Origin: Candidatus Bathyarchaeota archaeon
GTDB taxonomy: Archaea > Thermoproteota > Bathyarchaeia > Bathyarchaeales > Bathycorpusculaceae
Assembly: GCA_963826715.1 (NCBI GenBank)
Contig: CAWGYA010000002.1
Coordinates: 352,001 to 416,000 of the forward strand
DNA: 64,000 nt
Direction of reading: 5' to 3'
The position numbers were made by a program, and so were the translations under genes. The first letter of the stretch is position 1. The number at the start of each line of letters is the position of its first letter. Of the stretch, positions 5,407-64,000 are shown piece after piece. Below the pieces are notes generated by a model. It ran no database searches, was not told the DNA's origin, and saw only the letters and a list, made by a program, of their open reading frames with translations.

Positions 5407-5994
5407 CTGGGTCACAAGGAAAATACAGCAATGCAACTATTAAAATCAAATCTCGACAACACCCGCTAGCAGCATCAGTTCAACTTGAAAAACAAATGCA
5501 CAAAAAGAAAAAAAGGTTGATTCGCCATTTCGCTAGTATGTATAGCCGAGTTTTCTTCATTCATTCGATAGTCAAAGCATTTACTTGGGTAAACTTTTGG
5601 GAGAAAAAATGTTTAGACCTAAATAAAAAAGCAACAATTATCTCTGACAAACAGACTTCAATTCTATACATACCTAACCCATTCTCATCCCATCCCAACA
5701 AACATAGCACAACATACCATTTGAAGCAAAAAAAACAATTTTCCCCATTTCAACAGCAGCTGAAAAAAAGCCTAAACCAAAAAACCAAACAGCCCCACAA
5801 CCCACCATGGGATGGGAAAAACCAAAACCGCCCCATCCCCACACATTAAGAAAAAAGAAAAGCACACACTATAAAACAGAAGCATACAAAACGGTAACCC
5901 CAATTTCGGGGCTAATTTGTGTTTTTGTGCAGTGTGTCTGCGTAGCTTTTATTAAGGCACAACTCCTTTAGATGCCAAACAAGGTGCACCAAGT

Positions 5995-7047: not shown

Positions 7048-8144
7048 AAACCGTCAAGACCAGCAATTATTTTCTCTTTTACCCCATTATCTTTCAAGGT
7101 ATCTTTTAGCAAATCTATGGTCCGCACAGGCGTAGGATCCACACCGCGAAGAATCGCCAAATAAACACTCACAAAATCCCCAAGAACCACAGTTGAGAGC
7201 ATTCTAGCCAAAAGACTTATCCCCTGTGCTTCAACCTCAAACATCATCAAACCAGCTTTCTCCATAATTTGCTTAGTTATCTCAATGCGACTCTCAATCT
7301 CCACAGACTCATCGATGTCACGGATAAAAATAATAGAGAAGTACCGAACGCATTCGCCACGGTTTTCCCATCCAACAATTTCGTTGTGGTCAAGCTCTGA
7401 GAAATACTCCCATTTCGCCGGGGATTTACTGTTTTCATTAAATTGAGTCTTAAAACGCTGCGCTACACTTCGGTAAACCCCAAAGCCATAGATTATGGGC
7501 ACAGTTTCATCGATATGCTGAGCCAAATCCTTTGAAGGATTATCTAAAACCGCAATTTCAGGCCCGTTATCTTTACAGACCTTCGCTAAAACCTTCACTG
7601 CTTCATCAAGTTCCATAACTGAACCTGAAACTACACCAATCTTATCCATTAAAACCAAAAGCGGCACAAACAAATAAGGTAACGCAGCACGCGGCGGCAT
7701 TCCACCCGGAACCTGCAGATAGGACACATTATGCTTCCGCGCATACTTGAGCAAGGCACCACCACTACTAATACAGTAAACCATACATTCACGTTCGAGA
7801 GCATCATGAAATGCACTAAGTGACTCCTCAGTATCTCCTGAATAACTAATAACTACCACCAAAGTTTTCTTATCCGCATAATCTGGCAAAGTATATTCCC
7901 GGTACACCTCAATAGGAACTTCTGCCTTGTTTTTAGCCCAATCTTTTAACAAATCCCCACCGATAGCTGAGCCACCCATTCCCGCAACAACAATATTATC
8001 CGGAATAGGAATGTTAAATGTGATTTTCTGCGCTATTTCCAAAGCCTTCTGGTAATGAATTGGTGCATCAACACAGTAATTTAGCATACCACTTCTATCT
8101 ACAGAGCGGATTCTTTCAATATCATCTAAAACAGTTGTGGTCAA
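7044..8144 (-). CDS. bifunctional phosphoglucose/phosphomannose isomerase
   Basis: GMGGSAIGG, SYSGDTEE, PRAA, Q.NENSK, ELDHNEIVGW. Confidence 0.92.
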   Translation of the reverse strand: MTTTVLDDIERIRSVDRSGMLNYCVDAPIHYQKALEIAQKITFNIPIPDNIVVAGMGGSAIGGDLLKDWAKNKAEVPIEVYREYTLPDYADKKTLVVVISYSGDTEESLSAFHDALERECMVYCISSGGALLKYARKHNVSYLQVPGGMPPRAALPYLFVPLLVLMDKIGVVSGSVMELDEAVKVLAKVCKDNGPEIAVLDNPSKDLAQHIDETVPIIYGFGVYRSVAQRFKTQFNENSKSPAKWEYFSELDHNEIVGWENRGECVRYFSIIFIRDIDESVEIESRIEITKQIMEKAGLMMFEVEAQGISLLARMLSTVVLGDFVSVYLAILRGVDPTPVRTIDLLKDTLKDNGVKEKIIAGLDGF

Positions 8145-8234
8145 GTCATATAGCCTCCACGTGACCCGCAGTTTTATATCTCAATCCACCCTTTTAAGCA
8201 CAACGCAGTCAACACAGAGTAAGGAGCAAGGGTC

Positions 8235-9089
8235 ATGGTTAAAAAGAAAATCTCCATCGCTATTCCAACATCAATCATCTCAGATACCCCTCATTTACGT
8301 GAGAAAACCTCCAAAATTGGGTTAATTGCTCGCTCCGCCGCTATTTTCAGAGTTGACCAAATCATCGTTTACCCAGACACCCCAAAAACAAACCAAAAGC
8401 GAGACCAAGAATTCATCGCACTTCTGCTTAACTACTTAGAAACCCCCCAATACCTACGCAAAACGCTCTTCAAACTTGAACCTGACCTGCAATACGCCGG
8501 AATTCTGCCCCCACTACGTACCCCCAATCATCCCCTCAGCGGTAAAACCAAACATCTCAAAGTCGGCGAATACCGCGAAGGCTTGGTGATATCCGAGAGC
8601 AAAGAAGGATTAGCCGTAGATATTGGGGTACAACAACCTGCACTTCTTCGGGAGAAACAGTTCCGTGCCAGGGAACGCTTAACACTACAAGTGGTTAGTT
8701 GTGGTGAATTAATAGAGGTGCAACCAGTTAGCCGTGACGAGGTACCGTTTTACTGGGGCTACTGTGTGAAAGTGGAAGAACACACGTTTGGGAAATTCTC
8801 CAAAACTGGCGATTTCGATTTGAAGATTGCAACAGCAAAGGTAGGAGCCAATTTCGCTGATGTTTCAAATAAGATAAGCAAAAAATGGCAGAGCAGCAAC
8901 AATATACTGATTGCATTTGGTGCACCATCCCGCGGTTTGCACGAAATAGCCGCTGACGAGGGCTTGGAACTCTGTGAACTATCAGATTTTGTCGTGAACA
9001 CTGTCCCAAATCAAGGTACGGTAACTGTTCGAACTGAAGAAGCTCTTTTGGCAACGCTGGCGCTCTTCAACATCTACTTCGTCAACTAA
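8235..9089 (+). CDS. SPOUT-family RNA methyltransferase (DUF171 type)
   Basis: ARSAAIFRVD, YLETPQYLRK, LPPLRTP.H, NTVPNQGT.TVRTEEA. Confidence 0.9.
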   Translation: MVKKKISIAIPTSIISDTPHLREKTSKIGLIARSAAIFRVDQIIVYPDTPKTNQKRDQEFIALLLNYLETPQYLRKTLFKLEPDLQYAGILPPLRTPNHPLSGKTKHLKVGEYREGLVISESKEGLAVDIGVQQPALLREKQFRARERLTLQVVSCGELIEVQPVSRDEVPFYWGYCVKVEEHTFGKFSKTGDFDLKIATAKVGANFADVSNKISKKWQSSNNILIAFGAPSRGLHEIAADEGLELCELSDFVVNTVPNQGTVTVRTEEALLATLALFNIYFVN

Positions 9090-9140
9090 GACAAAAGTTG
9101 TTTTTACTTTGTGTTTTGACTAAAGGAATAAATTCTCCTT

Positions 9141-10280
9141 TTGGTTATTGGTGGGTTTATGCCCTCACTCGATATTGCTATGCCCATCGCCCTGTTAGTT
9201 GTTATAACCGTTGCCATGCTTCTAAACAAGCGTGTAGAGAACAAATTGATGGCAACAGTTGAGCAAAAAGAATTCAAAACTCGAGATATAGTTCTCCTTG
9301 TTGTTTTCATGGTGATTATGATATCCGTCATCGCCTATACCTCAATGATTAATCCAGGAGGCATAGTACCTAACATCCTACTTATCCTCTTTATGGGATC
9401 CTACACTATGCTGCTCTTCACTTTCTCCTACGTCTTCACTAACATGACTAAAGTACGGGCAAAACAAGTTTCAACAGTGTTTGGGATCAGCAGCTTGACC
9501 GCGGCTATAGCCAGTTTTCTAGGTCCACTTACCGACGCCTACACAATTCCCCGTGCAGCAACATTCTTTTTGCTTGCAGCCCTCTGCTTTAGCGTTGTAG
9601 CATATGAACAGAAAAAAACCATAACAAAAAGTCGCTGGTACGTTGCTGCACAGCCACCTGCACTATTTGTTCTACTATTCCTCTTCTTTGCAGCTCTTTA
9701 TGATGGAACAGTTAATTTGTGGTTCCCAATTCTTATGGATGCCTTTGCTTTCACATTTGCACTCTTGATTATCATGTATCTTTCGTCGCTATTTAACTGG
9801 AAAACAGTCTGGGTCTTCGCAGCTCTACTACCGATCATAGATGTAATACTAGTTTTCACCGGACCAATGGTTGCTGCAGCGCACACATTCACAGGTCTCG
9901 GGTTACCAGTGTTGGTTTACCTACCGAATATTCCAGTGATTTTAAGCACTGCAGGCGAGATTGGCCTTCGGGGACTAGGACTTGGAGATTTCTTCTTTGC
10001 AGGCATACTTGTTGTTCAAACTTACAAAAAATTCGGACAAAAAACAGGACTCATAGCAGCTGCCGCGATAGCCTTATCGTTTGGCATCTGGGAAGCTTTC
10101 CTTCCAGACATATTCAACATCTTAAAAATCGAAGGCTTCCCCGCTACAGTTTGTATTATCACTGGGTGGCTACCAATTGTTGCCTGGAAACTATTAATAT
10201 CAAGAAAAGAACCCCCTGCAGTGGTTGTTGTAGAGCAAACACAACACCCATCGGAAACCCCAACAACACAACCACTATAA
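9141..10280 (+). CDS. presenilin/signal-peptide-peptidase-like GxGD intramembrane protease
   Basis: multi-TM; IDV.LVF (YD-equivalent Asp), GLGLGDFF, FPAT (PAL-like). Confidence 0.75.
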   Translation: MVIGGFMPSLDIAMPIALLVVITVAMLLNKRVENKLMATVEQKEFKTRDIVLLVVFMVIMISVIAYTSMINPGGIVPNILLILFMGSYTMLLFTFSYVFTNMTKVRAKQVSTVFGISSLTAAIASFLGPLTDAYTIPRAATFFLLAALCFSVVAYEQKKTITKSRWYVAAQPPALFVLLFLFFAALYDGTVNLWFPILMDAFAFTFALLIIMYLSSLFNWKTVWVFAALLPIIDVILVFTGPMVAAAHTFTGLGLPVLVYLPNIPVILSTAGEIGLRGLGLGDFFFAGILVVQTYKKFGQKTGLIAAAAIALSFGIWEAFLPDIFNILKIEGFPATVCIITGWLPIVAWKLLISRKEPPAVVVVEQTQHPSETPTTQPL

Positions 10281-10523
10281 ACTTAATTAATTATTTTTTT
10301 AAAGTGAAAAGAGATTGGGGAAAAAGTGATTAAAAATAAGAGGTGAGGCTTTTACCCGAATAAGGCATCCGTTAACGTCCGTATTATTATTTTTATATGT
10401 CAATTTGGTAACTGGAGGTTGGTAATATGTATGCAAACCAATTCCTTAAAGTCTAAACGGGAAAGGGAATCGCACCTCAACTCAAAAGCCCATCCCCAGT
10501 ACAAATACTGACATGGATGTTTA

Positions 10524-10550
10524 GGGTTCGGTTCCCCAGCGAGCCCGCCA
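10524..10550 (+). other. degenerate tRNA 3'-half fragment
   Basis: GGGTTCGGTTCCCCAG-CGAGCCC-G-CCA resembles T-arm + acceptor + CCA; no 5' half. Confidence 0.45.
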
Positions 10551-10592
10551 CCCCCCGTGCGAATATGTACTTTTTTGATTTGGGTTAGATTC

Positions 10593-10662
10593 AGTCAAGA
10601 AACTTTTGCGACAAGAAATAGTCAAGAAATCTGAACTAAAAAAGTAGAGCCTAGTCAAGAAA
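10593..10662 (+). repeat. three AGTCAAGAAA direct repeats upstream of the secreted-protein gene
   Basis: copies at 10593, 10620 and 10653, plus a partial ACAAGAAA at 10611. Confidence 0.6.
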
Positions 10663-10708
10663 CCTGTACAAAAAGGTTTTTTTACCGATACAACTCTTTC
10701 AGATTTAA

Positions 10709-11689
10709 ATGAAACCGCTCAAACTGTTAGGTCTGCTGATTATCGGCGTGTTTTTGGCGTCCACCCTAACAGCGACTGCTCAAATGTACCCAAAGGCATT
10801 GAACCCGACAGTTTACGGGGATACAACCATTTACGAGTTCAATGGTAACCCTATAAACCTAACCGCAGTCATCGACTCTTTGGAAATCAGAAACAACCAC
10901 ACCGAAGTCGCTTTTACCTTGACGCTTAACTCGCAGACATTTGATATGATGGGCGAAGAGATGAATTCGAGCCAATACCACAAACCCGAAGAAACAGGAG
11001 TCCTTCAATACTATTTGTGGTCAGGTTTGACATTTGATTTAGACAGAAATTTCACCATAAACGCTGTTTGGGTCAACTGGTTAGCTGGAAGTGGAAAAGA
11101 CATTGAAAATGGTTACACAACACTGGATGCATATAGCCACTATTTTTCATTAAATCAATCAGGAGACAGCTTCCATGGCAACGCTGTTTTGCCAAAGCTC
11201 TCAGAAGGTGTTCATAACGTTACTTTTTGGGTTACAGCTAGGCAGAATTACATCTCATACTTCAATCCCCTTTGGGCGGTTTTCTCCAAAACTGTCATAT
11301 TTACTGCGGATACCACAGCCCCAACCGTCACTGTAATGTCTCCTGCAAACCAAACCTACGCTGCCGATAGGGTTCCGCTGGATTTCTTTGTTAACGAATC
11401 CAGCCCCAGAATGAGTTACAGTTTAGACGGAATGGAGAATGTTAACGTCTCAGGCAACACTACACTAGCAGAGTTGTCCAATGGCGTACACAGCATAATA
11501 ATCTATGCTGAAGACGCGTTTGGTAACGTCGGTGCCTCAGAAACAGTCGCCTTCACCGTTGCAAAGCCTGATACTTCACTAACAACATTAGTAATAATTA
11601 TCACGGCGGCAGTGGTGACAGGCGCAGGCTTGCTGCTTTACTTCAAGAAACACAAACACCCGAAAAATTCACTTTTTAATGCGTCTTGA
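10709..11689 (+). CDS. secreted Ig-like-domain protein with C-terminal TM anchor
   Basis: signal peptide; DTTAPTVTVMSP...SYSLDG...L.NG.HSIIIYAED..GN Ig-like module; TM followed by KKHKH. Confidence 0.85.
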   Translation: MKPLKLLGLLIIGVFLASTLTATAQMYPKALNPTVYGDTTIYEFNGNPINLTAVIDSLEIRNNHTEVAFTLTLNSQTFDMMGEEMNSSQYHKPEETGVLQYYLWSGLTFDLDRNFTINAVWVNWLAGSGKDIENGYTTLDAYSHYFSLNQSGDSFHGNAVLPKLSEGVHNVTFWVTARQNYISYFNPLWAVFSKTVIFTADTTAPTVTVMSPANQTYAADRVPLDFFVNESSPRMSYSLDGMENVNVSGNTTLAELSNGVHSIIIYAEDAFGNVGASETVAFTVAKPDTSLTTLVIIITAAVVTGAGLLLYFKKHKHPKNSLFNAS

Positions 11690-11825
11690 ACCAGTTATGG
11701 CGTCATAGATTTTTTTGATGCTGGGATAATTCAAGTATTCTCTAGCGAACTTGCGCATAAGTGTTGCCTAAAATGAATAAGGGGAAAAAGAAGTATATAA
11801 AATAATACACCCGTTAACGGGGTGC

Positions 11826-12140
11826 TTACCCGAATAGGGCGCCTAATCCTTCTAATGCTGCTTCTTCTTTGGCTTTTTCGTCTTCTGCTTTCTTCTTCTT
11901 GTCTTCTGGAGCTGCTGCTGCGGGTTTAGATTCTGCCGCTGCAACTGGAGCTGCTGCCATCATAGTTGGTGCTGCTTTAATGGCTTCATCGATGTTAACT
12001 TCGCTAAGGGAAGCTACAAGAGCTTTAACTTTAACTGCGTCAACTTCGAGTCCTGCTGCTGCGAGAACTTTTGTTACGGATTCTTCGTTGATTTCTTTAC
12101 CTGCCTTGTGAAGGAGCATTGCTGCGTAAATGTTTTCCAT
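11826..12140 (-). CDS. rpl12: 50S ribosomal stalk protein aP1/L12
   Basis: [11 protein letters not shown]..., Ala-rich hinge, GLGALFG C-terminus; GAGGTGA SD. Confidence 0.97.
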
Positions 12141-12188
12141 ACCTTTTCACCTCTTCATTCGAGTATTTTAACCTTTTTAGTTAGCATG

Positions 12189-12249
12189 ACCCACTTCCAT
12201 TGGAAGCTGGCCGTTACTGAATTGGCAGTTCGGTCCGCCGAATCTTGCC
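12189..12249 (-). promoter_or_regulatory. structured 5' leader of rpl12 (two hairpins)
   Basis: GGCA-AGA-TTCGG-CGGA-CCGAA-C-TGCC and CCA-G-CTTCC-AAT-GGAAG-TGG, GC-rich within an AT-rich intergenic region. Confidence 0.45.
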
Positions 12250-12581
12250 GTTTAGATGAATACCCAATACCTTAAGAACCTTTCGTCCATATAATAACAG
12301 GTAAAATTTAGATATTGACTGTTTTTCATTAGTTACCTATTCGCAATCAACACGTACTGCGAATGCAAAAAATTAACTATACCTTGACACTGAGGACAAA
12401 AGCAGAAGAAGTTCATGGTGTCTCGTTGGAGTTTTCGGTTTTTTCTGATTATTCCCGTTCAGCAGGATTTGATGAATTAGAAAACCCACCTCTTTTCTAT
12501 TGAAGCATAAAGAAAACAAACTGACTCTCATAACACTTATCTTATAGACAACCCACATGCCCTTATCTACAGGTCATACCC

Positions 12582-13541
12582 ATGGGAAATATAACCATCG
12601 CCATACTTGGCAAATTGGACTATGGCAGTGCCCTCGCTAAAAAAGGCACCTCAACTGACATCACACTATATAACCTCAAAAAAGGCGAAGCGACTATAAC
12701 TTTTATCGAACCTACCAGATACCCCGAACGACTTGCACCTCTCTTCTATGCCTGCGCCCTAGCTAAAAAAGCACTAGTCATTGTAGATGAACTTAACGCA
12801 TCGTTCGGTGAACAACTAGTTATGCTCCAATGTAGCGACATCAAAAGCGGCTACTTTGTGCTCCGCAACTACATCCCAAAAGAAAAAATCGAGCCGCTTC
12901 TTAAAGGAACTAATCTAGAAAATTTTGAGTTTCTTGAAGACGACCCTAACCTAATACGTGAAAAGCTCCTAACAGAAGCGGACCAACAAAAATCCCCTGA
13001 ACCCTCAACTGTTGGATCAGTGCCCATTGACCACGCGTTTAACGTGAAAGGGGTCGGAGTAGTTGTCTTAGGCATAGTTATCAATGGAATCGTGCAGAAA
13101 CACTCAACTCTCAACGTCCTTCCAGGCACAAAAACCTCTCAGGTCCGCTCTATACAAAAACATGATGACGAATTTGACATAGCAAGCGAAGGAGACCGGG
13201 TAGGATTGGCACTAAAAAACGTTGTTGTGGAAGATTTGGACCGCGGTAATGTATTAACCAATGATCCAGCCATTAAGACCTCTAACAAGCTTCAAACAAC
13301 TGCTTCGCTGGTAAAATATTGGCAAACGCCAATAAAGGCAGGAATGGTGATGCATGTGGGGCATTGGACACAGTTTATAACCTCTAAAGTTGAAGCTATC
13401 ATAAAAGAAGATATTAGAAATCCCACCATCATGTTATCGCTAGATAAACCCTTGGTATATCGCCCAGGCGACAAGGCTGTTTTAATGTATCTTGAAGGCA
13501 CTAAGCTACGTGTAGCAGGAACCATAGAGCTATTTGCATAG
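12582..13541 (+). CDS. archaeal SelB-like/EF-Tu-like protein with degenerate G domain (aSelBL)
   Basis: IDHAFNVKGVGVVVLG, VRSIQKHD, GDRVGLALK, DLDRG (domain II); no GxxxxGKT or NKxD. Confidence 0.85.
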   Translation: MGNITIAILGKLDYGSALAKKGTSTDITLYNLKKGEATITFIEPTRYPERLAPLFYACALAKKALVIVDELNASFGEQLVMLQCSDIKSGYFVLRNYIPKEKIEPLLKGTNLENFEFLEDDPNLIREKLLTEADQQKSPEPSTVGSVPIDHAFNVKGVGVVVLGIVINGIVQKHSTLNVLPGTKTSQVRSIQKHDDEFDIASEGDRVGLALKNVVVEDLDRGNVLTNDPAIKTSNKLQTTASLVKYWQTPIKAGMVMHVGHWTQFITSKVEAIIKEDIRNPTIMLSLDKPLVYRPGDKAVLMYLEGTKLRVAGTIELFA

Positions 13542-13711
13542 AAACATGTAGTCAACATCTTGAGTACAGGTTGTTCAATTGATCGAGGCATTAAGGTAAA
13601 TGCGGTCTGCGTTGGTACCCTAAGTGGTAAACAAGGAATTTCTGCATCTATCGCTTGTGCCACCCAATACAAATTCTTAAAACATACAATCGCCATAACC
13701 TTTTACTGATT

Positions 13712-14296
13712 ATGATGCCGTTCTCAAGAAAAGTCGGAGCCGCTGCAGGAATCGCTACACCAATATTCGCCTTCACCTGCATCTTTATAGCCATCGCCAT
13801 TACCCCTCACTTTAGCTGGACCAACAACGCACTCAGTGATCTAGGGGTAATCTCAGGCATAACGGGTCCGCTATTCAACGTGGGTCTAATCATAAGCGGA
13901 GTTTTAGGATGCGTATTCGCAATTTTTGGCTTGCTCGACTATGCGGGAAAAACTTGGGTAGGCAAGTTCGGCGCGGTGCTTTTTAATTTTGCATCATTAG
14001 TGCTTGTTTTGATAGGCATATTCAACGAACACTTTTCACCCATACACTACATTGTTTCAGTTGCGTTTTTCAGTTTGACGCCAATTGCCCTTTTCATTCT
14101 AACATACGCGTTCTATCTCAACATCAACCGAGGTTTAGTTGCGTTTACAGTCGCAATTGCGCTTTTCGCAGCCGTACCCTGGGTACTTCAATTAACCGTT
14201 CATTATGTACCCAATGTCGCTATCCCTGAAACATTATCTGCGCTTGCGGTTTCAGCCTGGGCAATTGTACTTTCCGCAAAAATCCTCCGACATTAA
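13712..14296 (+). CDS. DUF998-like membrane protein
   Basis: FSW..NALSDLG, LFN.GLII.G, LIGIF.E...H..VS..FF. Confidence 0.8.
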   Translation: MMPFSRKVGAAAGIATPIFAFTCIFIAIAITPHFSWTNNALSDLGVISGITGPLFNVGLIISGVLGCVFAIFGLLDYAGKTWVGKFGAVLFNFASLVLVLIGIFNEHFSPIHYIVSVAFFSLTPIALFILTYAFYLNINRGLVAFTVAIALFAAVPWVLQLTVHYVPNVAIPETLSALAVSAWAIVLSAKILRH

Positions 14297-14305
14297 TCAT
14301 TAAGG

Positions 14306-15295
14306 TTAAACAACATCCAAATACATTTGGGCGCAACAAGATGATGAAAAAATCGACTGATACCCTTTGCATTTTGCATAATCTATTGCTTCGGGGCTTG
14401 GAAACGCAATGGCATCCACACCTGCCTTAAGCGCCAAAATATCAATTTCTGAGCGAAGTTTACCCTTGGGACGCATACAGCCTAAAGCCAATGGTGCCTT
14501 AGGAAACATTATCCGCGCAGCGGAAACGACTCTAACGATATCAAGCGAAGATGGCGGTAGAGTCTGACCCATTTCTGTACCTCGGATAGGCATGAAAGCA
14601 ATAATCACAACTGCTGCCGGCTTGATGGTTTGTGATATAATTTCAAGAGCATGAAATTCACTGTCTAGTTCTCCATTATTTAAGCCAACCAAAATATGTG
14701 GCACAACTTTGAGCCCTGCATTATCAAGTGCAAGGAGCGATTGCATATAATCTTCAACTTGAACGTCTAAATTAAGGGCTTGCAAGGCTGTTTGACGTGA
14801 ACCCAAAATATCAATTAACGCTGCATCAACCCCTGCCTTCTTCAAAGCTAAAGCTGTAGAAAAGCTGATTACGCCCGTATGAACAAACACAGTTAATTCT
14901 AGCTCCTTCTTAAACCGTGCCAAAACAGGGGTGAAATCGTCCAGCGGAACAGAACCGTCTGGGAGACATCCACCACTAACCAGCACCCCCCTCGCTCCAT
15001 CGTTTTTGAGCTTTAACCCCAAATTCCAAAGTTGTTCCGGATCAATCGCAGGATGCATTGTTTCCAACACTCTGCCGCCACAGTGCTTGCAGTTAAGTGC
15101 ACAAGCGTTGCCTGTAACGGAGATAGTCGGGAACTCGTTGGTTGACGGACAGAACCGAGAGTCTTTATAGTAGCTAAAACTTGGCACATAGAAACGGATA
15201 ATATCACATCGGGGTTTTAGATAACCTGAATCCAATAAATTCTGAAGCTCAGTTTTGGTGCAGTTCCAGATAGTTTGAGGATTTATTTTTTGCAT
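14306..15295 (-). CDS. lipS1: radical SAM protein, LipS1-type lipoyl synthase component
   Basis: ISVTG..CALNCKHC, LVSGGC, GCMR and C-terminal CC motifs. Confidence 0.75.
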   Translation of the reverse strand: MQKINPQTIWNCTKTELQNLLDSGYLKPRCDIIRFYVPSFSYYKDSRFCPSTNEFPTISVTGNACALNCKHCGGRVLETMHPAIDPEQLWNLGLKLKNDGARGVLVSGGCLPDGSVPLDDFTPVLARFKKELELTVFVHTGVISFSTALALKKAGVDAALIDILGSRQTALQALNLDVQVEDYMQSLLALDNAGLKVVPHILVGLNNGELDSEFHALEIISQTIKPAAVVIIAFMPIRGTEMGQTLPPSSLDIVRVVSAARIMFPKAPLALGCMRPKGKLRSEIDILALKAGVDAIAFPSPEAIDYAKCKGYQSIFSSSCCAQMYLDVV

Positions 15296-15660
15296 AGACT
15301 TTATAGATAGAATTCAGCATCTGCCTTAATAGTTTACGTAAAAAATTGACGAAGCAAAAAAACTAAAGTTAGGAATCAAATAGTCACTCCAAACCAACGC
15401 GCTCCATCACTTTCAGCGCCCATAAAGCAGCCCTAAGAATCGCAGAATTGCTACAAATCACGTGGTCTCCTAAAAGACTAACCACTTCCAATCGCTTCAC
15501 AATTCTAGAAAATAAAACGCCATAAAAGGATAAAATGCTTGCTAAAAACATCGAACTTTGAGGATCAGTGAAAGGTAATAGTTTTTTAATTCTGTCTATT
15601 TAAAGTCTTGAGCTTTACAATGTTTAAATTCTACTTATCCCAATTGAGATTAGTGATTCG

Positions 15661-16842
15661 ATGTCTTTATCAGCAACTGTTAAGGATGTATATTCCGGAA
15701 AATTTAATACCGTATTAGAAAACGATAGTGCATCAAAATGCCTGGAAGGCTTCAAAAAAGGGTTACCACCAGTTTTAGCGGTTCTAGATGACCATGGAAG
15801 ATATGTTGGCATGGTTAGTCGCCGTTCAATTCTGCGGTCTCGCCTCGATTTGAGTCGACTTAAAGTTAAGGGTTTAATGGTAAATGCCCCCGAAGTTACC
15901 TTAAACGATTCGCTGAGTCGGGTAGCAAAGTTGATGATTGGAAGCGGAGTCCGGCAACTTCCAGTATTTGAGAAAAACATGATTGTTGGTTTCATTACTG
16001 ATGAAGACGTAATTCACGCCGTTGTCCTTTGTGAATGGGGCAACAACTCGATTGAAACGATTATGACTCGCGCACCACATACAATGGAGTCAAATCGCAG
16101 CGTTGGCGCTGTTTTAAGTTTAATGCGTGAATCTGGTGCCTCTCATGTTCCCATCATGGAACATGGACACCTTACAGGATTGATAAGTGATGAGGACATT
16201 TTGGAAAGTGTCTATTACCCACCTAAACGTATGGGCAACAAAGACGTGGTAGGCGAACAAATTGACACCTTGGGCATCGCAGCAAAGGGCATTATGCACA
16301 GTCCCGTAATTACTGTTGAGCCAAAAAAGAGTCTGCGTGAATGCGAAAAAATGATGCATGATCAGGATGTTTCAAGTTTATGCGTGATTGATGGCGAACG
16401 CTTAATGGGGATCGTAACGAAACTTGATTTCCTCGAACCAATTAGTGAATTCGAGAAAGCCGAACGCAAGTTCACCGTACAATTCGGTGTAAAAGAAGTT
16501 GACGTCAGCCAAGATCAAAAAGAGTTTATGATGAACGAGTTTGATTCATTTACTCATCGCTTCCAAGAAGCCTTCCAACTTGGCACATTATTTGTTTATA
16601 TGAAAAGCCATCGCGGAACCAACATGCGCGAAACTCCAATGGTTCAATGTCGACTACAGTTCCGAACCACACGCGGCAACTTTTATGTTTCAAGCGAGGG
16701 TTGGGGGATTGAGCCAACCTTCAAAGTTGCACTTGAACGCTTAGAACGACGTTTACTGCGCAGTAAAGAGTTGCTGGCCTACAATCCACGGTTTGCACGA
16801 GATTACCTCCGTCAAATGGGGTTACCAGAGGAAGAAACTTAG
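15661..16842 (+). CDS. 4xCBS protein with C-terminal HPF/RaiA-like domain (Hib-type hibernation factor candidate)
   Basis: four CBS repeats; C-terminal beta/alpha domain ending EGWG...F..AL.RLERRL. Confidence 0.75.
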   Translation: MSLSATVKDVYSGKFNTVLENDSASKCLEGFKKGLPPVLAVLDDHGRYVGMVSRRSILRSRLDLSRLKVKGLMVNAPEVTLNDSLSRVAKLMIGSGVRQLPVFEKNMIVGFITDEDVIHAVVLCEWGNNSIETIMTRAPHTMESNRSVGAVLSLMRESGASHVPIMEHGHLTGLISDEDILESVYYPPKRMGNKDVVGEQIDTLGIAAKGIMHSPVITVEPKKSLRECEKMMHDQDVSSLCVIDGERLMGIVTKLDFLEPISEFEKAERKFTVQFGVKEVDVSQDQKEFMMNEFDSFTHRFQEAFQLGTLFVYMKSHRGTNMRETPMVQCRLQFRTTRGNFYVSSEGWGIEPTFKVALERLERRLLRSKELLAYNPRFARDYLRQMGLPEEET

Positions 16843-58165: not shown

Positions 58166-58627
58166 TTAAGGTTTGTATTGAAGAGAAACCGTTATTCGTT
58201 TACGACTTAAACTAGTTTTAATTTCTGAGTTAATTTTCGAGTTTTCTTTTCCTTTGCTTGCGTGACCAAAACGGGTAATCTTCCAATTTTTGAGATTGCC
58301 TCTGATTAACTGTGGGTTGCTTGTTAGAATGTAGAAGGGCGTTTTTGTTTGGGAAGAGTAGAGTTCAGCGATAAAGTTTAGGAACCGTTTGCCAACTCCG
58401 ACTCCTTGATAGTCCGGTAGCACAACTAGTCGGCTTACTCTGTAGTATTTTGCTTTCATTCTTACGCATGCGACAGCTATGAATGCTATGGGTTTCTCTT
58501 TATAGACTGCCGCGTAACACCGAACACCGGCACCCAAAGAACCGTTTAGATAATGATGCTGCCGAAACATCTTCCAAAGGGATGCGCCGCACCGATAAAC
58601 GCTGAGGTTAACGGGCGGCCGACTTCT
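58166..58627 (-). CDS. Mom-like GNAT acetyltransferase (-1 frame continuation of the ABC ATPase)
   Basis: W.MF.QHHYL, RVSRLVVLPDYQGVGVG, TSNP; frame is open back to the A9 run. Confidence 0.8.
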   Translation of the reverse strand, partial: RSRPPVNLSVYRCGASLWKMFRQHHYLNGSLGAGVRCYAAVYKEKPIAFIAVACVRMKAKYYRVSRLVVLPDYQGVGVGKRFLNFIAELYSSQTKTPFYILTSNPQLIRGNLKNWKITRFGHASKGKENSKINSEIKTSLSRKRITVSLQYKP

Positions 58628-59226
58628 TTTTTTTTGCTAAACTCCATTGTATCGGTGGAGAAAACCCAGTCAGGATCTAACCAATCAACCACATCATAGT
58701 GACAAGTAACAGCAATGAATTTCTTTGCGCTTCTGCGAACTGCCTTGCTGATGGCAAAGGCGCTGACTTTAGCTATTTCTCGATCGACAACGCTTGTGAA
58801 CTCATCAAAAACGATCAAAGGCTGCTCAAGACACAATGCTCTTGCGATGTCTACCCGCATCTTTTCTCCCTGACTCAAACAATCATAACCTTTTAGCCAG
58901 TCCGGTGGACTAGCAAACCCGACACTACAAAGTATCTTTGTAATCTCACCAGTTTCAAGCTCTTGGGGAAAATCATCAAGAACACACTTACCGTTGTAAT
59001 CAAATTCTCGGATGTAGGCTTCCGGGAAAAGCTGCTTAGCTATGCTGGTTTTGCCTGAACCGCTGCGCCCAACAATGACGCCGATTTGCCAATCAAAAGT
59101 TTCCAGTGGCAAATTGCCCTTAAACCGTTTCTCCAACTTTACGTCGTTTAGGGTGTAGCTGCCCACGACGCTCTGGGCTCGGAAGCTGTCGGATTCTTCC
59201 CATTTTTTTACTATGTCAAAATCCAT
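58546..59226 (-). CDS. stand-alone ABC-type ATPase
   Basis: GRSGSGKT, LSQGE, FDEFTSVVDR, VTCH, WL.PDW. Confidence 0.9.
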   Translation of the reverse strand: MDFDIVKKWEESDSFRAQSVVGSYTLNDVKLEKRFKGNLPLETFDWQIGVIVGRSGSGKTSIAKQLFPEAYIREFDYNGKCVLDDFPQELETGEITKILCSVGFASPPDWLKGYDCLSQGEKMRVDIARALCLEQPLIVFDEFTSVVDREIAKVSAFAISKAVRRSAKKFIAVTCHYDVVDWLDPDWVFSTDTMEFSKKKEVGRPLTSAFIGAAHPFGRCFGSIII

Positions 59227-59240
59227 TCTTGTCAGCTCCG

Positions 59241-59816
59241 CTAAAGTGTTAGGATTCTTAGTTTGAACCCCTGGGCTTTTAACTTCTCAAAATATTCTTT
59301 TTGTTGTGCCTCTGATTTACATTCAATTATGAGCTCGTAGGTTTCAGGAACCGAAAAAGAGACCTCTCGATCATCTACCTCTATAGGAAGCTTTTCGCCT
59401 ACGGATTGAAGGAATAACTTTAATTCCTCTTTCTCTCCCTCGTCAATTATGCGCAGGTACTCGGCACTATCCATCTCCCTGTTATGTTTGCCCCGTAGCT
59501 TGTTTAGCACCTGCCGAAGCAAACGGCGATCAACATCCTTAACTGGCAAGCGAATGACGCTGCACTCAGTCATACCAAGCTCCTTCATAGCCGTAACACG
59601 CTGCTGACCATCAGCCACCAAAAGCTCACTGTTAGTGACGACTGGAACGATGTCGCCCCATCGCTTAATTGAAGATTTTAAGCGGTCAAGCTGCATAAGA
59701 GTTAATCTGTTAGGGTTGTCTTGGTCAAACTTGAGCTCGCTGATTCTTACTCGCTCCGACATTGGAATTGGAATTTCTTTTTCATTTTCCACTGATTCTC
59801 TGCTAAGTACGCTCAT
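59241..59816 (-). CDS. ParB/Srx N-terminal domain protein
   Basis: NPN......L.SSI...G...PVV......VADGQQRV.A...LG. Confidence 0.88.
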   Translation of the reverse strand: MSVLSRESVENEKEIPIPMSERVRISELKFDQDNPNRLTLMQLDRLKSSIKRWGDIVPVVTNSELLVADGQQRVTAMKELGMTECSVIRLPVKDVDRRLLRQVLNKLRGKHNREMDSAEYLRIIDEGEKEELKLFLQSVGEKLPIEVDDREVSFSVPETYELIIECKSEAQQKEYFEKLKAQGFKLRILTL

Positions 59817-60595
59817 ATTTTCAAACTCTCCCTAAATGTTAATTGACAAATTTGGTCATTTTCCGATTTTTTCATAAACCAGCCGCACTTTTCAGCACAT
59901 GTTGGACATTTCTCTTTAAGGTAACGTGCATTACGTGCGTCACACTCCGCGTTCTCCGCTTGTTCTTGCTGTTCTTCTAATTCTTCCACCCTTGCTTGCT
60001 CAGCTGTCCTGTTAGCAGTTAACTGTTGAATATTCTGGGTTGTTTTGAAAACGTTATGTGCTTCACAGAAGCGATTAAAACTCTCAGGAGTAAATAAGTC
60101 ATGGTTCCAAGCCGCATAGACGGGGGCTAAGAGTCTTTCTTGTTCACCTTCACATAGTTTCCAATATCCAGGGGTTTTAAAGACTGCTATTTCTGCGTCG
60201 AATTGTTTTTTGAATTTGCGGGTTTCTTCTATTAGCCAATAGAATCGTGTGTAGAAGACCCAGTTGGCCATGGGGTCTTTTAGCGTAACAAAAGCATCTG
60301 TGAAGACTTGAAAAATCTCATATACTCTAGCCATAAACCGGCGGTTAGCTGCATCTACGATTGCTTGATCATCTGGTGACAGGGGGGTACAGGTGGTTTC
60401 TCCCCGATCGGCTGCTTGCTGCAATTCTTCTCCATAAGCCTCCAAGATATGGCTCGCTCGTCTATGTAACTCGTTTTCAGCTCGATCTAACTCTATGTCA
60501 CCGTTGTCCCATGTTATCTTTGTAGTGCCTTCGTGGGGAAGTTCAGGTAGGACATTTTTTTCTAATGCATGGAGTTTCCGGCTTAGGATATTCAT
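59813..60595 (-). CDS. hypothetical protein with C-terminal CxxC...C
   Basis: 260-aa ORF with ATGA overlaps on both sides. Confidence 0.7.
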   Translation of the reverse strand: MNILSRKLHALEKNVLPELPHEGTTKITWDNGDIELDRAENELHRRASHILEAYGEELQQAADRGETTCTPLSPDDQAIVDAANRRFMARVYEIFQVFTDAFVTLKDPMANWVFYTRFYWLIEETRKFKKQFDAEIAVFKTPGYWKLCEGEQERLLAPVYAAWNHDLFTPESFNRFCEAHNVFKTTQNIQQLTANRTAEQARVEELEEQQEQAENAECDARNARYLKEKCPTCAEKCGWFMKKSENDQICQLTFRESLKI

Positions 60596-60876
60596 TTCTT
60601 TTTATCCTCCGGTTTGGGTATTAATATGCTGTTTTTGAGCTTCTCCTCTAAAGTTATCACCCGAAGCTCCAACTCCTCATCCTTTAGCAAGGGACCATAG
60701 GCTGAAACTGCTGAAACCAAAACCCGTGCCCAACCCTGCTTTGCTTTATCGCTGTTTCCCTCGGAATGAATTTTTTTATGAGATAAACCTAATACACCGT
60801 CTAAAACACGAAACAACGTATTTCTACGCTCCTTTGTAGAACGGTTTGATGTTGGTTTCTTGGCGGTTTCAGCCAT
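60592..60876 (-). CDS. small helical protein (terminase-small-subunit-like tail)
   Basis: EELELRV..LEE coiled tail; first gene of the ParB operon. Confidence 0.6.
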   Translation of the reverse strand: MAETAKKPTSNRSTKERRNTLFRVLDGVLGLSHKKIHSEGNSDKAKQGWARVLVSAVSAYGPLLKDEELELRVITLEEKLKNSILIPKPEDKKK

Positions 60877-61427
60877 AGCTCATGCCTTCTTCTCTCCCTC
60901 GTGCTCTTTGCTTACGCGTCTTTAAACGCCAAATAGTTACGCAACTCAGTCGAATGCTTGAAGCCTTTACAGTTGTCCATGACATTGGTTGTTTTAGTTC
61001 AACCATTTAAAAACAGAATAATAATTGTAAGAATACCGGGTCAGAGGTAGGGTGAGAGGGCAAGTTACAACAAAAAACATAAAGTCTTTTTCCCTACCGT
61101 TTACCGCTTTATCTAGAACTACCTGCACAAAATAGCCCCACCATCGAGTCACTTTATAAAAATTAACATATAGTCACGCCCAAGTTGAAGACGGAAATAA
61201 TGAAATTTGATTGCCCCCTGCAACGACTAACTAACATTCAGGGGTTTTCCTCAAACTGTTTATAGCTAACTCAAATAAAAAGGCTTTTGATTAGTCGCAG
61301 ATCAATGAAAGAGACAGGCCCTCACCATGCATCATTGATTACTTCAATAGGAGAATTGACTGAAGAAGCACCGGATTATGTTAATTTAGACAAAAAAGAG
61401 TGGAGTTAAAAAAAATTTGAGCGTCTA

Positions 61428-62153
61428 TTATGAATATTTTTCAAGTAATTCTTTGACTGCTTTGAGCAACTCTGCAGGGTTTTCTTTAAACCGTTCGTCT
61501 AATCTGAAATGCGCTGGTTCCATCACTTCGGGTCGGACTACCCGTATTTTATCTCTGATGGTGCTTATGCGAGAGGCAAGGTTCAATTCGGGATATATTT
61601 CATCGATGACAGCAATAACTACTGAGTCTTCAGGTTGCAGGACTACTTGAGGGTCAAACCAGTGAGCCGGTTCCATGACTTCAGGTCTCACAGCTATTGC
61701 CTTACCGTGGGTTACAGTAGTCAATGTTGGAATCGTAAGCGTTGGTTTTCTGAAATGCGCTGGTTCCATCCAATCCGTCTTAAGTTTGAGTTTTAATGCA
61801 TCAAACCAAATGGCATACAAACAATATTTGCCAACGGACGCTTTGATAGGAGTCTCTTTTAGGTTGCTAAGTGCATGATTTAGTTCGCTTTCAAAAAGGG
61901 TTCCTCGTAGATTATCGCCGCCAATGGTGAGTTTGTTTACATTTCCTTTTTCACCGATTTCAACAACGATAGGAATAGTTGTTGTTACGACGAAACCAAT
62001 TTTTCTTGAAACACTATCAAAAGCATTATCGATAGCTTTTTGGTATTTTTCCTTGATTATTTTGTAAATTGCAAGCAGGTCTTCGTATTGTTTTATGATT
62101 CCGGGGTGTGCAGGTTCCATCCAGTCTCTAAGTCTAAGATTTTTTTCAGCCAA
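61428..62153 (-). CDS. protein with four MEPAH repeats (putative radical SAM substrate)
   Basis: DWMEPAHP, DWMEPAHF, EVMEPAHW, EVMEPAHF; TTG start behind AGGAGGTGA. Confidence 0.85.
   Translation of the reverse strand: MAEKNLRLRDWMEPAHPGIIKQYEDLLAIYKIIKEKYQKAIDNAFDSVSRKIGFVVTTTIPIVVEIGEKGNVNKLTIGGDNLRGTLFESELNHALSNLKETPIKASVGKYCLYAIWFDALKLKLKTDWMEPAHFRKPTLTIPTLTTVTHGKAIAVRPEVMEPAHWFDPQVVLQPEDSVVIAVIDEIYPELNLASRISTIRDKIRVVRPEVMEPAHFRLDERFKENPAELLKAVKELLEKYS
61503..61770. repeat. 22-bp perfect direct repeat encoding MEPAHFR
   Basis: TCTGAAATGCGCTGGTTCCATC at 61503-61524 and 61749-61770. Confidence 0.9.
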
Positions 62154-62157
62154 TTTC

Positions 62158-63906
62158 TCACCTCCTTTGGTCTTCTTCTAATTGTTTTTTGAAGAAGTTA
62201 TATGGAATTACATATGGAGAAAGCCCCATCAAATCAAGTATGCCCGCTTGGGGACCAAGAGATTGACTTTGGAAGCTAGATTTGTCATTGATTGAAAGTA
62301 CCGAGCTTTCTAAGCCGCCATTGGCATAAATTGCGGGCATCATTTTTATCGCGTTATCCCTGTTTTTGTAAGCTTCTTCCATCCAGTCAATGATAGCTTG
62401 ACCCTGCAACCGCAGCACACTACTTTTCTTATCGATTTGTGTACGCATTTGCTGAGTAAAGTTGGCGATGGCTGCTTCATCATGATTTTCTCCAGAAATG
62501 AAATCGTAAATCACACTTAGCCAATGATATGTATCAAGATTTGTCTGTTTTATGAAATTCTTAACTTCACTTCTCAGAGTTTCAGACAATAGGTTAGGGT
62601 AGAAACGCCTTAGCAGTTGGAAGTAGAAATCCACCTGCATGTTGAAGTAATGCAATCCATAGTCACTGAAATTGCGGTCAAAGAACGCATAATTAGCGAT
62701 TTGATGGAATAATTCGCATTTTGAATCTGCAAGACGATAATCGAAGCCGAAATAACTCCCTAACAGACGGTTTTCGGCAGTTAGTTTTGCTTCTAAACCT
62801 GTGCCTGCATAAGCTTCTGCTCGGCAAAAGTTAAACGGATTGTCAAGGTGCCTTTCCATGAAACGAATATTAAGCAGCAAATCTGCCATGGATGCGTCCG
62901 GCTCAAACATCAGAAAATTATAAGCAACATGGATATTGAAATCGTTGAGTACGGTGAGTGCGTTGAGAGTTTGCTCAAGGGTTTGTATTCGGTTTAAATT
63001 ATTTAGTCCATTAGCCGAAGCGTTTTCAACTCCCAAGAAAACCCTAAATAAGCCCAACTCATCAAGGATTTTTATGGATTCTCGATCTATGCTTTCAGGC
63101 CTTGCTTTGATAGCAATAGCGATTCCTTCAACTTTCTCTTGCTTTAAACGGTCTCGAAGAAGTCTAAAACGCTCAATTGCTTGCTGCTGATTGGGCAGGA
63201 AGAAATTATCATCCTGAAAATTAAAAATTCTTATTCCGTGCTCAAAGTACAGTTGCTTCATCTCTGCAACGATGTTTTCTACGCTGCGATAGCGGAATTT
63301 CTTACCTCCAGCCTGATTATACCAAGCGTTAATGCTGCAAAAAGCGCAGTTCCGCCAGCAACCGCGGCTGCTTAGAATGCTGCCGATTTTTTTCCCGAAA
63401 TACTCATGGAAATGCTCCCTTTTTGGGAAAGGCAAAGAATCCAAGTTTTCCCTGTTCCCATTTCCTTTGTTTGTGGAGATTTTGCCATCTGTATTTCGAT
63501 AACATAAAGCTGGAACCGATGCGAGTTTGTCGAGATTATTTGCCAGTGAGACCATAAGGTCTTCACCTTCACCTAAAGCAACCGAGTTTATAGCGGGGTA
63601 ATCAGTAAGTAGCTGTTCGCTGTTGAAAGACGCGAAATGTCCCCCGGCAACTATGTGGCCCTCGTAACCCGACTCTCGAATGCTTTTGGCTAAGTTGAGA
63701 AACTCTCTGGCCCGGCTGGTGAACACCATAGATAAACCTATGATTTGGGGGGTAAAGTTGAGGATGTCTTGAACTACTTTTGCTTGGTCGTAGTTTGAAT
63801 TGAAAGGAATTACTTGTGTTTGATGTTTATGCGCTTCAAGTGAGGCGGCTATGTAGCGTAGCCCCAGATTTTCTTCAAGTTCAGCTCCTACAAGTGCTAT
63901 TTTCAT
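62158..63906 (-). CDS. cobalamin-binding (class B) radical SAM enzyme
   Basis: LGLRYIAASL, IGLS, VAGGHFAS, GEGE (B12 domain); SSRGCWRNCAFC; DDNF; GVE. Confidence 0.93.
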   Translation of the reverse strand: MKIALVGAELEENLGLRYIAASLEAHKHQTQVIPFNSNYDQAKVVQDILNFTPQIIGLSMVFTSRAREFLNLAKSIRESGYEGHIVAGGHFASFNSEQLLTDYPAINSVALGEGEDLMVSLANNLDKLASVPALCYRNTDGKISTNKGNGNRENLDSLPFPKREHFHEYFGKKIGSILSSRGCWRNCAFCSINAWYNQAGGKKFRYRSVENIVAEMKQLYFEHGIRIFNFQDDNFFLPNQQQAIERFRLLRDRLKQEKVEGIAIAIKARPESIDRESIKILDELGLFRVFLGVENASANGLNNLNRIQTLEQTLNALTVLNDFNIHVAYNFLMFEPDASMADLLLNIRFMERHLDNPFNFCRAEAYAGTGLEAKLTAENRLLGSYFGFDYRLADSKCELFHQIANYAFFDRNFSDYGLHYFNMQVDFYFQLLRRFYPNLLSETLRSEVKNFIKQTNLDTYHWLSVIYDFISGENHDEAAIANFTQQMRTQIDKKSSVLRLQGQAIIDWMEEAYKNRDNAIKMMPAIYANGGLESSVLSINDKSSFQSQSLGPQAGILDLMGLSPYVIPYNFFKKQLEEDQRR

Positions 63907-64000
63907 TTTGTTTTTCTCCCAAAGTCTTAAATAGGCAGATGTCTGCTTTCAGCCGACTTATCTATTGTTTCTTAAAGTTCCCTGCTTGCTTTACCTAACT

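Follow-up and report, generated by a model that had tools for sequence, protein, structure and literature searches.

The gene pair at the locus

The DNA stretch analysed here, a window of 64,000 nucleotides (positions 352,001 to 416,000 of contig CAWGYA010000002.1, assembly GCA_963826715.1) from a Candidatus Bathyarchaeota archaeon, carries close to its right-hand end two contiguous genes on the reverse strand, comprising (i) a class-B (cobalamin-binding) radical S-adenosylmethionine (SAM) enzyme of 582 residues (62158..63906), delimited from the list of open reading frames (ORFs) and Pfam, and (ii) a protein of 241 residues with a TTG start codon (61428..62153), taken from the same ORF list, without any above-cutoff match in Pfam or NCBIfam, and called here the EPAH protein after the four-residue motif that it repeats. 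The last two arginine codons and the stop codon of the enzyme gene, AGGAGGTGA (62158..62166, reverse strand, by sequence reading), double as a Shine-Dalgarno-like GGAGG located 4 nt ahead of the TTG start of the EPAH gene. The junction reads AGG AGG TGA (62166..62158), followed by GAAA and by TTG at 62153, and the ORFs and the sequence confirm both genes, the dual role of AGG AGG TGA as a Shine-Dalgarno-like sequence and the 4-nt gap as described in the initial annotation. In related loci, the spacing comprises a 4-nt gap in eight cases and a 4-nt overlap in five, and is mostly 60-110 nt, as far as rough start-codon calls allow.

Four copies of the motif, all encoded on the reverse strand, are found by sequence reading exactly where they had been placed before: motif 1 (residues 13-16, 62106..62117) in the context RDW-M-EPAH-P with codons GAA CCT GCA CAC; motif 2 (residues 130-133, 61755..61766) in the context KLKTDW-M-EPAH-F with codons GAA CCA GCG CAT; motif 3 (residues 161-164, 61662..61673) in the context VRPEV-M-EPAH-WFD with codons GAA CCG GCT CAC; and motif 4 (residues 212-215, 61509..61520) in the context VRPEV-M-EPAH-F with codons GAA CCA GCG CAT. 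A six-frame count over the 2.64-Mb genome, with stop-to-stop frames of at least 60 residues, discloses seven occurrences of EP[AV]H, four of them within the EPAH protein, and no other frame with two; four EPAH motifs in one protein are thus far beyond chance. The synonymous codon differences between copies noted in the initial annotation hold for copies 1 and 3, which use other codons, whereas motifs 2 and 4 do not differ from each other over 22 nt that encode MEPAHFR (61509..61530 and 61755..61776). To judge from the nucleotide sequence, this identity suggests a recent event, either duplication or gene conversion, involving two of the four copies.

The radical SAM enzyme

The enzyme comprises a B12-binding domain (PF02310, residues 12-121, 63.5 bits against a cutoff of 32.1) and a radical SAM domain (PF04055, residues 179-334, 68.4 bits against a cutoff of 29.5), the latter containing the CxxxCxxC motif as C183/C187/C190, invariant in 21 of 21 aligned sequences. 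The same 21-sequence alignment shows a mean column identity of 68%, and orthologues from archaea and bacteria are ~60% identical. The radical SAM core is followed by a strongly conserved helical C-terminal domain (residues ~395-514) and by a variable linker modelled with low confidence (~520-560). Beyond the linker, the alignment delimits a C-terminal tail (residues ~560-582, 62158..62230, reverse strand) of the form D/N-L-F-G..P..IPY..FK, conserved across phyla and with P568 and F572 invariant. This tail is a candidate docking peptide for the folded domain of the EPAH protein.

Only two solved relatives are recovered by sequence, OxsB (E 3.3e-12) and MgmA (PDB code 9CCB, E 7.5e-7), and the AlphaFold2 model of the enzyme (predicted local distance difference test, pLDDT, 76.5) matches OxsB, TsrM, MgmA, CysS and TokK with Foldseek E values from 2e-21 to 1e-14. 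All 25 named NCBIfam families listed score far below their cutoffs, the best being HpnR (102.8 bits against 650), followed by ApyD, a ladderane-lipid enzyme, BchE and rSAM_ocin_1, with HpnJ also below its cutoff. By its predicted domains, cysteine motif and modelled fold, the enzyme is assigned to class B; the fold is silent on the substrate. Cobalamin binding and B12-dependent chemistry are predicted from the sequence and the model, and CobS is encoded twice in the host genome, which makes a supply of cobamide plausible.

The EPAH protein and its motif

The EPAH protein belongs to a family of its own. A search of a 5.8-billion-protein collection returns 536 relatives at E<=1e-3, and a profile search against 1.84 billion cluster representatives (50% clustering) returns 177 matches, every one of them within the family, with no bridge to any other family. 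Some sources label EPAH relatives as DUF1128 / UPF0435 (YfkK); the match of the EPAH protein to that family amounts to 22.9 bits over 29 residues only, below the Pfam cutoff of 27. In addition, the protein has no PHROGs family, and its sequence profile retrieves nothing meaningful among solved structures (best E 0.68). EPAH proteins are ~45-55% identical across phyla, and a 19-sequence alignment that includes archaea and bacteria displays a mean column identity of 44%.

The same alignment discloses invariant residues in every motif. Motif 1 holds six residues invariant in 19 of 19 sequences (W11, E13, P14, A15, H16 and P17), motif 2 four (W128, E130, P131 and H133) and motif 3 five (E161, P162, H164, W165 and F166); in motif 4, E212 is invariant while P213 and H215 are kept in at least 90% of the sequences. 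The residue preceding EPAH varies, with M 210, R 78, V 73, L 39, Q 30 and K 28 listed among 512 motif instances, and the core of the motif is therefore EPAH: of the invariant MEPAH proposed initially, the last four residues stand and the methionine, not conserved in relatives, does not. The consensus in 120 close relatives reads R-[P/T]-[D/E]-[W/V]-x-E-P-[A/V]-H-[F/W/P/Y], the number of motifs per protein being 2 (one protein), 3 (7), 4 (83), 5 (18), 6 (10) or 7 (1). Among 279 family proteins, 906 exact EPAH motifs are found; the one-mismatch variants, counted only with W or V at position -2, replace A in 117 cases (103 to V) and H in 13 (12 to Q), against two replacements each of E and P. Alanine is therefore an unlikely target, its replacement by valine being tolerated while E, P and H hardly vary, and this pattern in the sequences points to Glu, Pro or His as the key residue. 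Selection at the protein level, previously argued from codon usage, is confirmed by the family alignment and by these variant counts.

Longer variants reach up to 12 motifs by tandem duplication of motif-bearing units, multiplying the unit of motif plus amphipathic helix seen at motif 4. Four such proteins (P0270, P0278, P0281 and P0344) comprise 386-477 residues with 5-12 EPAH motifs, and their multiplying units are either a 22-residue 'QWPG[T/I]REPAHY..' or 'GVREPAH + helix ending RYG'. No fusion of the enzyme with an EPAH protein is found among 11 proteins of 425-533 residues, precomputed Pfam domains being absent from all of them.

The AlphaFold2 model of the EPAH protein, built on the 19-sequence alignment, has a mean pLDDT of 71.4 and displays a confident core domain at residues 17-125 (61779..62105, reverse strand), comprising a long helix, three strands and short helices, with pLDDT values of 79-94 for 10-residue blocks over residues 21-120 and a near-invariant strand IGFVVTTTxP. 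Outside the core, helices are modelled at residues 174-186, 192-204 and 226-240, the last one being C-terminal, amphipathic and located after motif 4. The segments 1-7, 9-13, 127-159 and 205-219 fall below a pLDDT of 50, and all four motifs lie in them or at their edge, with motif 2 within 127-159, motif 3 at the edge of that segment and motif 4 within 205-219. A Foldseek comparison of the model with the PDB gives nothing at E<=0.001, with matches only at E>=0.14. An exhaustive structural alignment (VIA-align) places TolA/TonB C-terminal domains in all of its top 11 rows, at Z scores of only 3.2-5.1, and a language-model feature search of the ESM Atlas returns TonB_C clusters at 0.89-0.90. As a weak lead from these model comparisons, which concern a TonB/TolA-like fold for residues ~13-121, the core may be a small domain of the peptide-docking type. 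The protein contains six histidines in all, four of them inside the motifs, and one cysteine; inspection by eye, with no predictor applied, reveals no hydrophobic or signal-peptide-like stretch at the N-terminus. A reading of the motifs as diiron-type ExxH sites is set aside, because they contain proline and lie outside the confident helices of the model.

Linkage, co-inheritance and distribution

An EPAH-side scan, with one genome per species, comprises 36 loci encoding an EPAH relative, in Acidobacteriota, Desulfobacterota (including the cultured Geobacter hydrogenophilus DSM 13691, locus L027), Brocadia, Methanoperedens, ANME-2, Chlorobium, Nitrospinae, Anaerolinea and one Bathyarchaeota genome at 83% identity. 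In 34 of these loci, the EPAH gene adjoins, on the same strand, the gene of a full-length orthologue of the enzyme (54-85% identity), which lies upstream in 33 and downstream in one. The two exceptions are (i) L038, whose contig is cut 192 nt before the EPAH gene, the enzyme being encoded at the end of another contig of the same genome, and (ii) L034 (8004..8570), where the EPAH gene is missing its first 45 residues and the enzyme gene is absent from the locus, with no enzyme orthologue found in that genome at E<=1e-60. Seen from the enzyme side, the EPAH gene lies directly downstream in 76 of 80 loci, these being the best 80 of 205 confirmed metagenome loci; three of the other four have less than 300 nt of contig left, and the fourth, L105, carries a shortened enzyme gene and no EPAH gene. 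In L034 and L105, the module has decayed. The coupling of the two genes, proposed from this single locus, is thereby borne out from both sides, and EPAH homologues, for which a frequent occurrence without the radical SAM gene had been named as the finding that would speak against it, nearly always occur with it. The one locus with the EPAH gene ahead of the enzyme gene is L025, an ANME-2 contig (208..3036) that ends 220 nt past the enzyme gene, so a second, downstream EPAH copy is possible there.

For 77 pairs, enzyme distances and EPAH-protein distances are correlated (r=0.80), and none of 999 Mantel permutations reaches this value, which shows co-inheritance as a unit, not physical contact. 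ORF clustering over the 36 loci reveals no third conserved gene, further clusters being confined to at most four loci. Pfam annotation of 150 of the 236 neighbouring ORFs (those of L003-L022 plus one ORF of L023) discloses heterogeneous housekeeping genes that recur only among close kin, and the clustering and this annotation together identify no conserved protease or transporter beside the pair. A small radical SAM ORF common to four of the 36 loci was considered as a third component and rejected, because its positions and orientations vary.

The distribution is patchy and crosses domains. In this archaeon, the pair is a rare accessory: a sample of 300 further genomes of the host's class, in which its genus is represented by 14, yields no EPAH relative, and a search of 15 genomes of the genus gives no match to the cassette DNA. 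Searches of 72,556 plasmids, 50,697 phage records and the IMG/VR contigs likewise reveal no EPAH relative. Taken across genomes, the pair is a conserved, portable two-gene module spread across bacteria and archaea.

Transcription

Contigs from four salt-marsh metatranscriptome runs, belonging to four studies, contain relatives ~96-97% identical to both genes, and one of them (run X1, ~97% identical) bridges the gene junction, covering 61516-62258. Transcription of the pair is weakly suggested rather than demonstrated, because the contigs are assembled from RNA libraries in which DNA carry-over is possible. In each of the four runs, word depth is greater for contigs with the EPAH gene than for those with the enzyme gene; a reading of this difference as a sign of higher EPAH expression or of habitat is rejected, because assembled contigs cannot rank genes and because DNA may again be carried over.

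A proposed enzyme-substrate pair

Class-B radical SAM enzymes are among the largest enzyme groups without assigned substrates, because these are rarely guessable from sequence. Here the genome itself names a likely substrate, a repeated four-residue site encoded beside the enzyme in nearly every carrier of either gene. A strict, portable two-gene unit is most simply explained as an enzyme encoded together with its own protein substrate, and the reading favoured on sequence grounds, judged moderately probable, is that the enzyme modifies each EPAH motif on an intact cytoplasmic protein. Accordingly arranged, the proposed mechanism would involve (i) recognition of the EPAH protein by docking on its folded N-terminal domain and/or on the helices that follow the motifs, (ii) modification of one residue in each exposed (R)-[P/T]-[D/E]-[W/V]-x-E-P-A-H-[F/W/P/Y] segment, and (iii) an intact, multiply modified cytoplasmic protein as the product, rather than excised peptides. 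Such a protein might function in regulation or in the binding of a metal or cofactor. The invariance of the motifs, their variable copy number and their location in low-confidence segments fit a combined recognition and reaction site, and the motifs are the presumed sites of reaction. As a guess, the reaction would be C-methylation at an unactivated carbon, which is what class-B enzymes most commonly catalyse. Of the two outcomes envisaged by the initial annotation, a modified intact protein fits the data better than excised peptides.

Several points weigh against this assignment. The relation between enzyme and substrate is derived from genomic association; the nearest solved relative of the enzyme by sequence and fold, OxsB, is a small-molecule enzyme, and its best NCBIfam match, HpnR, is a lipid enzyme rather than a peptide enzyme. 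Pfam (E<=0.01) detects no RiPP recognition element (RRE, PqqD-like; RiPP, peptide made on the ribosome and modified post-translationally) or other peptide-binding domain in the enzyme, nor an RRE in the EPAH protein, divergent RREs being able to escape Pfam. The conservation of the EPAH protein outside its motifs, reflected in the 44% mean column identity, would also suit a stable partner subunit, and the low pLDDT at the motifs may in part be due to the shallow 19-sequence alignment. Glu and His are classic metal ligands, and class-B enzymes also catalyse reactions other than methylation.

A more specific proposal, advanced tentatively and with less confidence than the enzyme-substrate relation itself, holds that EPAH marks an undescribed radical B12-dependent modification, placed on Glu, Pro or His at 2-12 sites of a cytoplasmic protein that remains intact and creating a new functional group, such as a metal- or cofactor-binding one, by a portable module that would have spread between archaea and bacteria and that lies here in the slot of a virus-like element. 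If confirmed, the pair would define a new enzyme-substrate family, probably with a new modified residue, and EPAH would serve a radical methylase, or a catalyst akin to it, as a short and portable tag for recognition. Such a new protein modification is directly testable with two genes and a mass spectrometer, and its carriers are environmentally important anaerobes, including Methanoperedens, the ANME-2 methane oxidisers, Brocadia, Geobacter relatives, soil Acidobacteriota and Bathyarchaeia.

Comparison with known systems

Literature searches on the motif, on class-B enzymes with a repeat protein and on genome-mining topics, conducted outside supplementary files, retrieve no description of the pair. 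Undescribed are the family of the substrate, its motif and probably also the residue that is modified; the general kind of system, a radical SAM enzyme with a co-encoded ribosomal substrate, is known.

The closest solved structure is that of OxsB, from oxetanocin biosynthesis (sequence E 3.3e-12; fold E 2.4e-21, with a TM score of 0.59 on the query). The two enzymes have the class-B architecture in common at an identity of only 18%, and OxsB acts on a nucleotide, is not known to methylate and has no repeat-bearing partner protein. Comparable in mode of action are PoyB and PoyC, from the proteusin RiPPs of the polytheonamide type, class-B C-methyltransferases that act repeatedly on one ribosomal precursor with a large protein-like leader; repeated action on one ribosomal product is the feature in common with the proposed EPAH reaction. 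The scores of the enzyme against rSAM_ocin_1 (87.2 bits, cutoff 281.85) and ApyD (89.7 bits, cutoff 750) are far below threshold. Unlike the PoyB/PoyC systems, the EPAH pair is not accompanied by further tailoring, protease or export genes, and its motifs are interleaved with folded elements instead of being grouped in a C-terminal core.

The likeness to MgmA and Mmp10/MamA, class-B radical SAM enzymes with a protein as the target of methylation, concerns both architecture, a B12-binding domain and a radical SAM core followed by a C-terminal domain, and the site of action, an unfolded stretch of a protein that is left whole, as proposed for EPAH. MgmA, the enzyme of the 9CCB structure, is described as a B12-dependent glutamine C-methyltransferase of methyl-coenzyme M reductase, with a large cleft for peptide binding and with methylating activity on a McrA peptide of 20 residues (PMC11796369). 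Its fold match to the enzyme (E 1.2e-16) is among the top matches, but the relation is distant, the MgmA-type family TIGR04014 scoring 59 bits on the enzyme against a cutoff of 360. In addition, MgmA modifies one site, whereas the presumed substrate here is encoded next door, offers four sites (2-12 in the family) and belongs to a family without known kin.

In the poly-cyclopropylglycine pathway, one radical SAM enzyme, TvgB, is described as modifying every TVGG in the neighbouring precursor TvgA (PMC9062424), and every copy of a short repeated motif in a neighbour-encoded product is the target, as suggested for EPAH. On the other hand, TvgB belongs to the multi-[4Fe-4S] (SPASM-type) subfamily, with no mention of cobalamin in that paper, the Tvg cluster comprises five genes, including an oxidase and two transporter/peptidase genes, and TvgA, a small peptide, is expected to be cleaved into pieces (PMC9062424). 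A further parallel is provided by multinuclear non-heme iron enzymes, which are reported to modify repeated motifs on an intact protein to give copper-binding sites (PMC11252979). These systems resemble the EPAH pair in having a dedicated enzyme encoded beside a protein with repeated motifs that stays whole; they differ in belonging to an unrelated superfamily with other chemistry, and serve as an analogy for the possible outcome only.

Alternative readings

The main rival, regarded as doubtful, takes the EPAH protein as a partner of the enzyme, namely a scaffold, an adaptor or a metal- or corrinoid-binding subunit, with the enzyme acting on a small molecule or lipid and the motifs binding a ligand. 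A conserved folded domain, retained at ~45-55% protein identity across phyla, is what a partner subunit would display, and E and H are, apart from P, the least variable residues of the motif. Among the families and structures that the enzyme matches best are HpnR, OxsB, CysS and TokK, all of which are small-molecule or lipid enzymes; the weak TolA/TonB-like fold belongs to domains that bind partner peptides, and the conserved C-terminal tail of the enzyme, past its variable linker, could dock on such a domain. The free EPAH tetrapeptide is also given as calcium-binding in a food-chemistry review, a point of very weak relevance (PMC7601898). A copy number that ranges from 2 to 12 by tandem duplication would, however, be odd for a fixed ligand site, and a pre-formed metal site would agree less well than a linear recognition motif with the invariant proline and the low-confidence segments. 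The protein also contains only six histidines, four of them in motifs, and one cysteine, and genes of a substrate-supplying pathway are not co-conserved among the 36 clustered loci or the 150 annotated neighbour ORFs.

A second alternative concerns the biological role and is compatible with either biochemical reading: the pair could be a conflict or accessory module of mobile elements, engaged in virus-host or inter-element competition or in stress. Such a role, which is considered improbable, agrees with the patchy cross-domain distribution at ~60% enzyme identity between archaea and bacteria, with the absence of the pair from all 300 other genomes of the host's class, including the 14 of the same genus, and with its position in this genome, in the variable slot of a virus-like element family. 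Against it, the EPAH protein has no PADLOC model and the enzyme only a generic 48.7-bit match to the candidate PDC-M51A, searches of the plasmid, phage and IMG/VR collections reveal no copies, the neighbours in other genomes are ordinary housekeeping genes, and what fills this slot elsewhere is sensor kinases rather than defence genes.

The least probable reading, to which very little credence is given, is a classical RiPP, in which EPAH peptides would be cut from the 241-residue precursor after modification and exported as natural products: the repeated core motif adjoining a radical SAM maturase, a copy number that varies as in multi-core precursors, the sub-cutoff NCBIfam matches to the RiPP methyltransferases ApyD and rSAM_ocin_1, and the reported action of TvgB on each motif repeat of TvgA (PMC9062424) are outweighed by the lack of a conserved protease or transporter beside the pair in the 36 loci, by motifs interleaved with a conserved folded domain of ~110 residues and with helices, each motif in its own conserved context, by a size and a confidently modelled domain unlike those of a short leader-core precursor, by an N-terminus in which the eye, no predictor being applied, finds nothing signal-like, and by the absence of any RRE detected by Pfam. 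The excised-peptide branch of the initial annotation is not supported on these grounds. Among the genes past position 64000, whose inspection the initial annotation suggested, is an M3 oligoendopeptidase 2 kb upstream of the cassette, just beyond the window. Its DNA is matched in 15 of 15 same-genus genomes, none of which matches the cassette, so it is not part of the system and is rejected as its protease.

Genomic setting in a virus-like element

The cassette is bracketed by two short sequences. The first, a multi-copy non-coding sequence identified by DNA comparison, lies downstream of the cassette (61101..61198); the second, of ~130 nt, falls outside the window, ~470 nt upstream of the enzyme gene (8373..8501 of L002, corresponding to ~64372..64500). 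The two are not direct or inverted copies of each other, and an Rfam search of the cassette flanks gives nothing at E<=0.1. At four other sites, one in C5 of the same genome, two in G315 and one in G314, both sequences are present together with their order and orientation preserved, and there the second sequence is the 3' end of a terminase gene. The DNA enclosed at these sites is 1.2-3.7 kb long and different each time, its contents including a PocR-PAS histidine kinase, a CheB-CheR-PAS-kinase fusion and ORFs without assigned function. A recurring bracket pair around differing DNA places the cassette in the variable slot of a degraded virus-like element, one of a family of such elements in this archaeal genus, a position that fits horizontal acquisition.

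Just downstream of the cassette, a five-gene operon of ~2.7 kb on the reverse strand (58166..60876), with overlapping stops and starts, encodes proteins of 94 and 260 residues, both without assigned function, a ParB-like protein (191 residues), an ATPase (226 residues) and a GNAT protein (134 residues). The operon is a multi-copy module, with other copies in the same genome at C8:470247-472907 (79%), C4:8979-11637 (78%), C8:600398-601720 and C7:154900-156066, and also in same-genus genomes. The ATPase and GNAT ORFs (58166..59226, reverse strand) overlap by 25 nt in different frames and jointly match a single PHROG, phrog_11143, over positions 11-201 and 217-348 of 357. These two ORFs could be a naturally split gene or a case of programmed frameshifting, and the same two-ORF arrangement is present in the C5 copy.

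The C5 site itself (L119, C5:150000-169999) displays, within 5958..16052, genes for the ParB-like protein, the ATPase, the GNAT protein, a 178-residue ORF and a terminase large subunit (phrog_2, E 3e-29), followed by a reverse-strand PocR-PAS histidine kinase, a 302-residue ORF, a head scaffolding protein and a major head protein, an arrangement that looks like a provirus.

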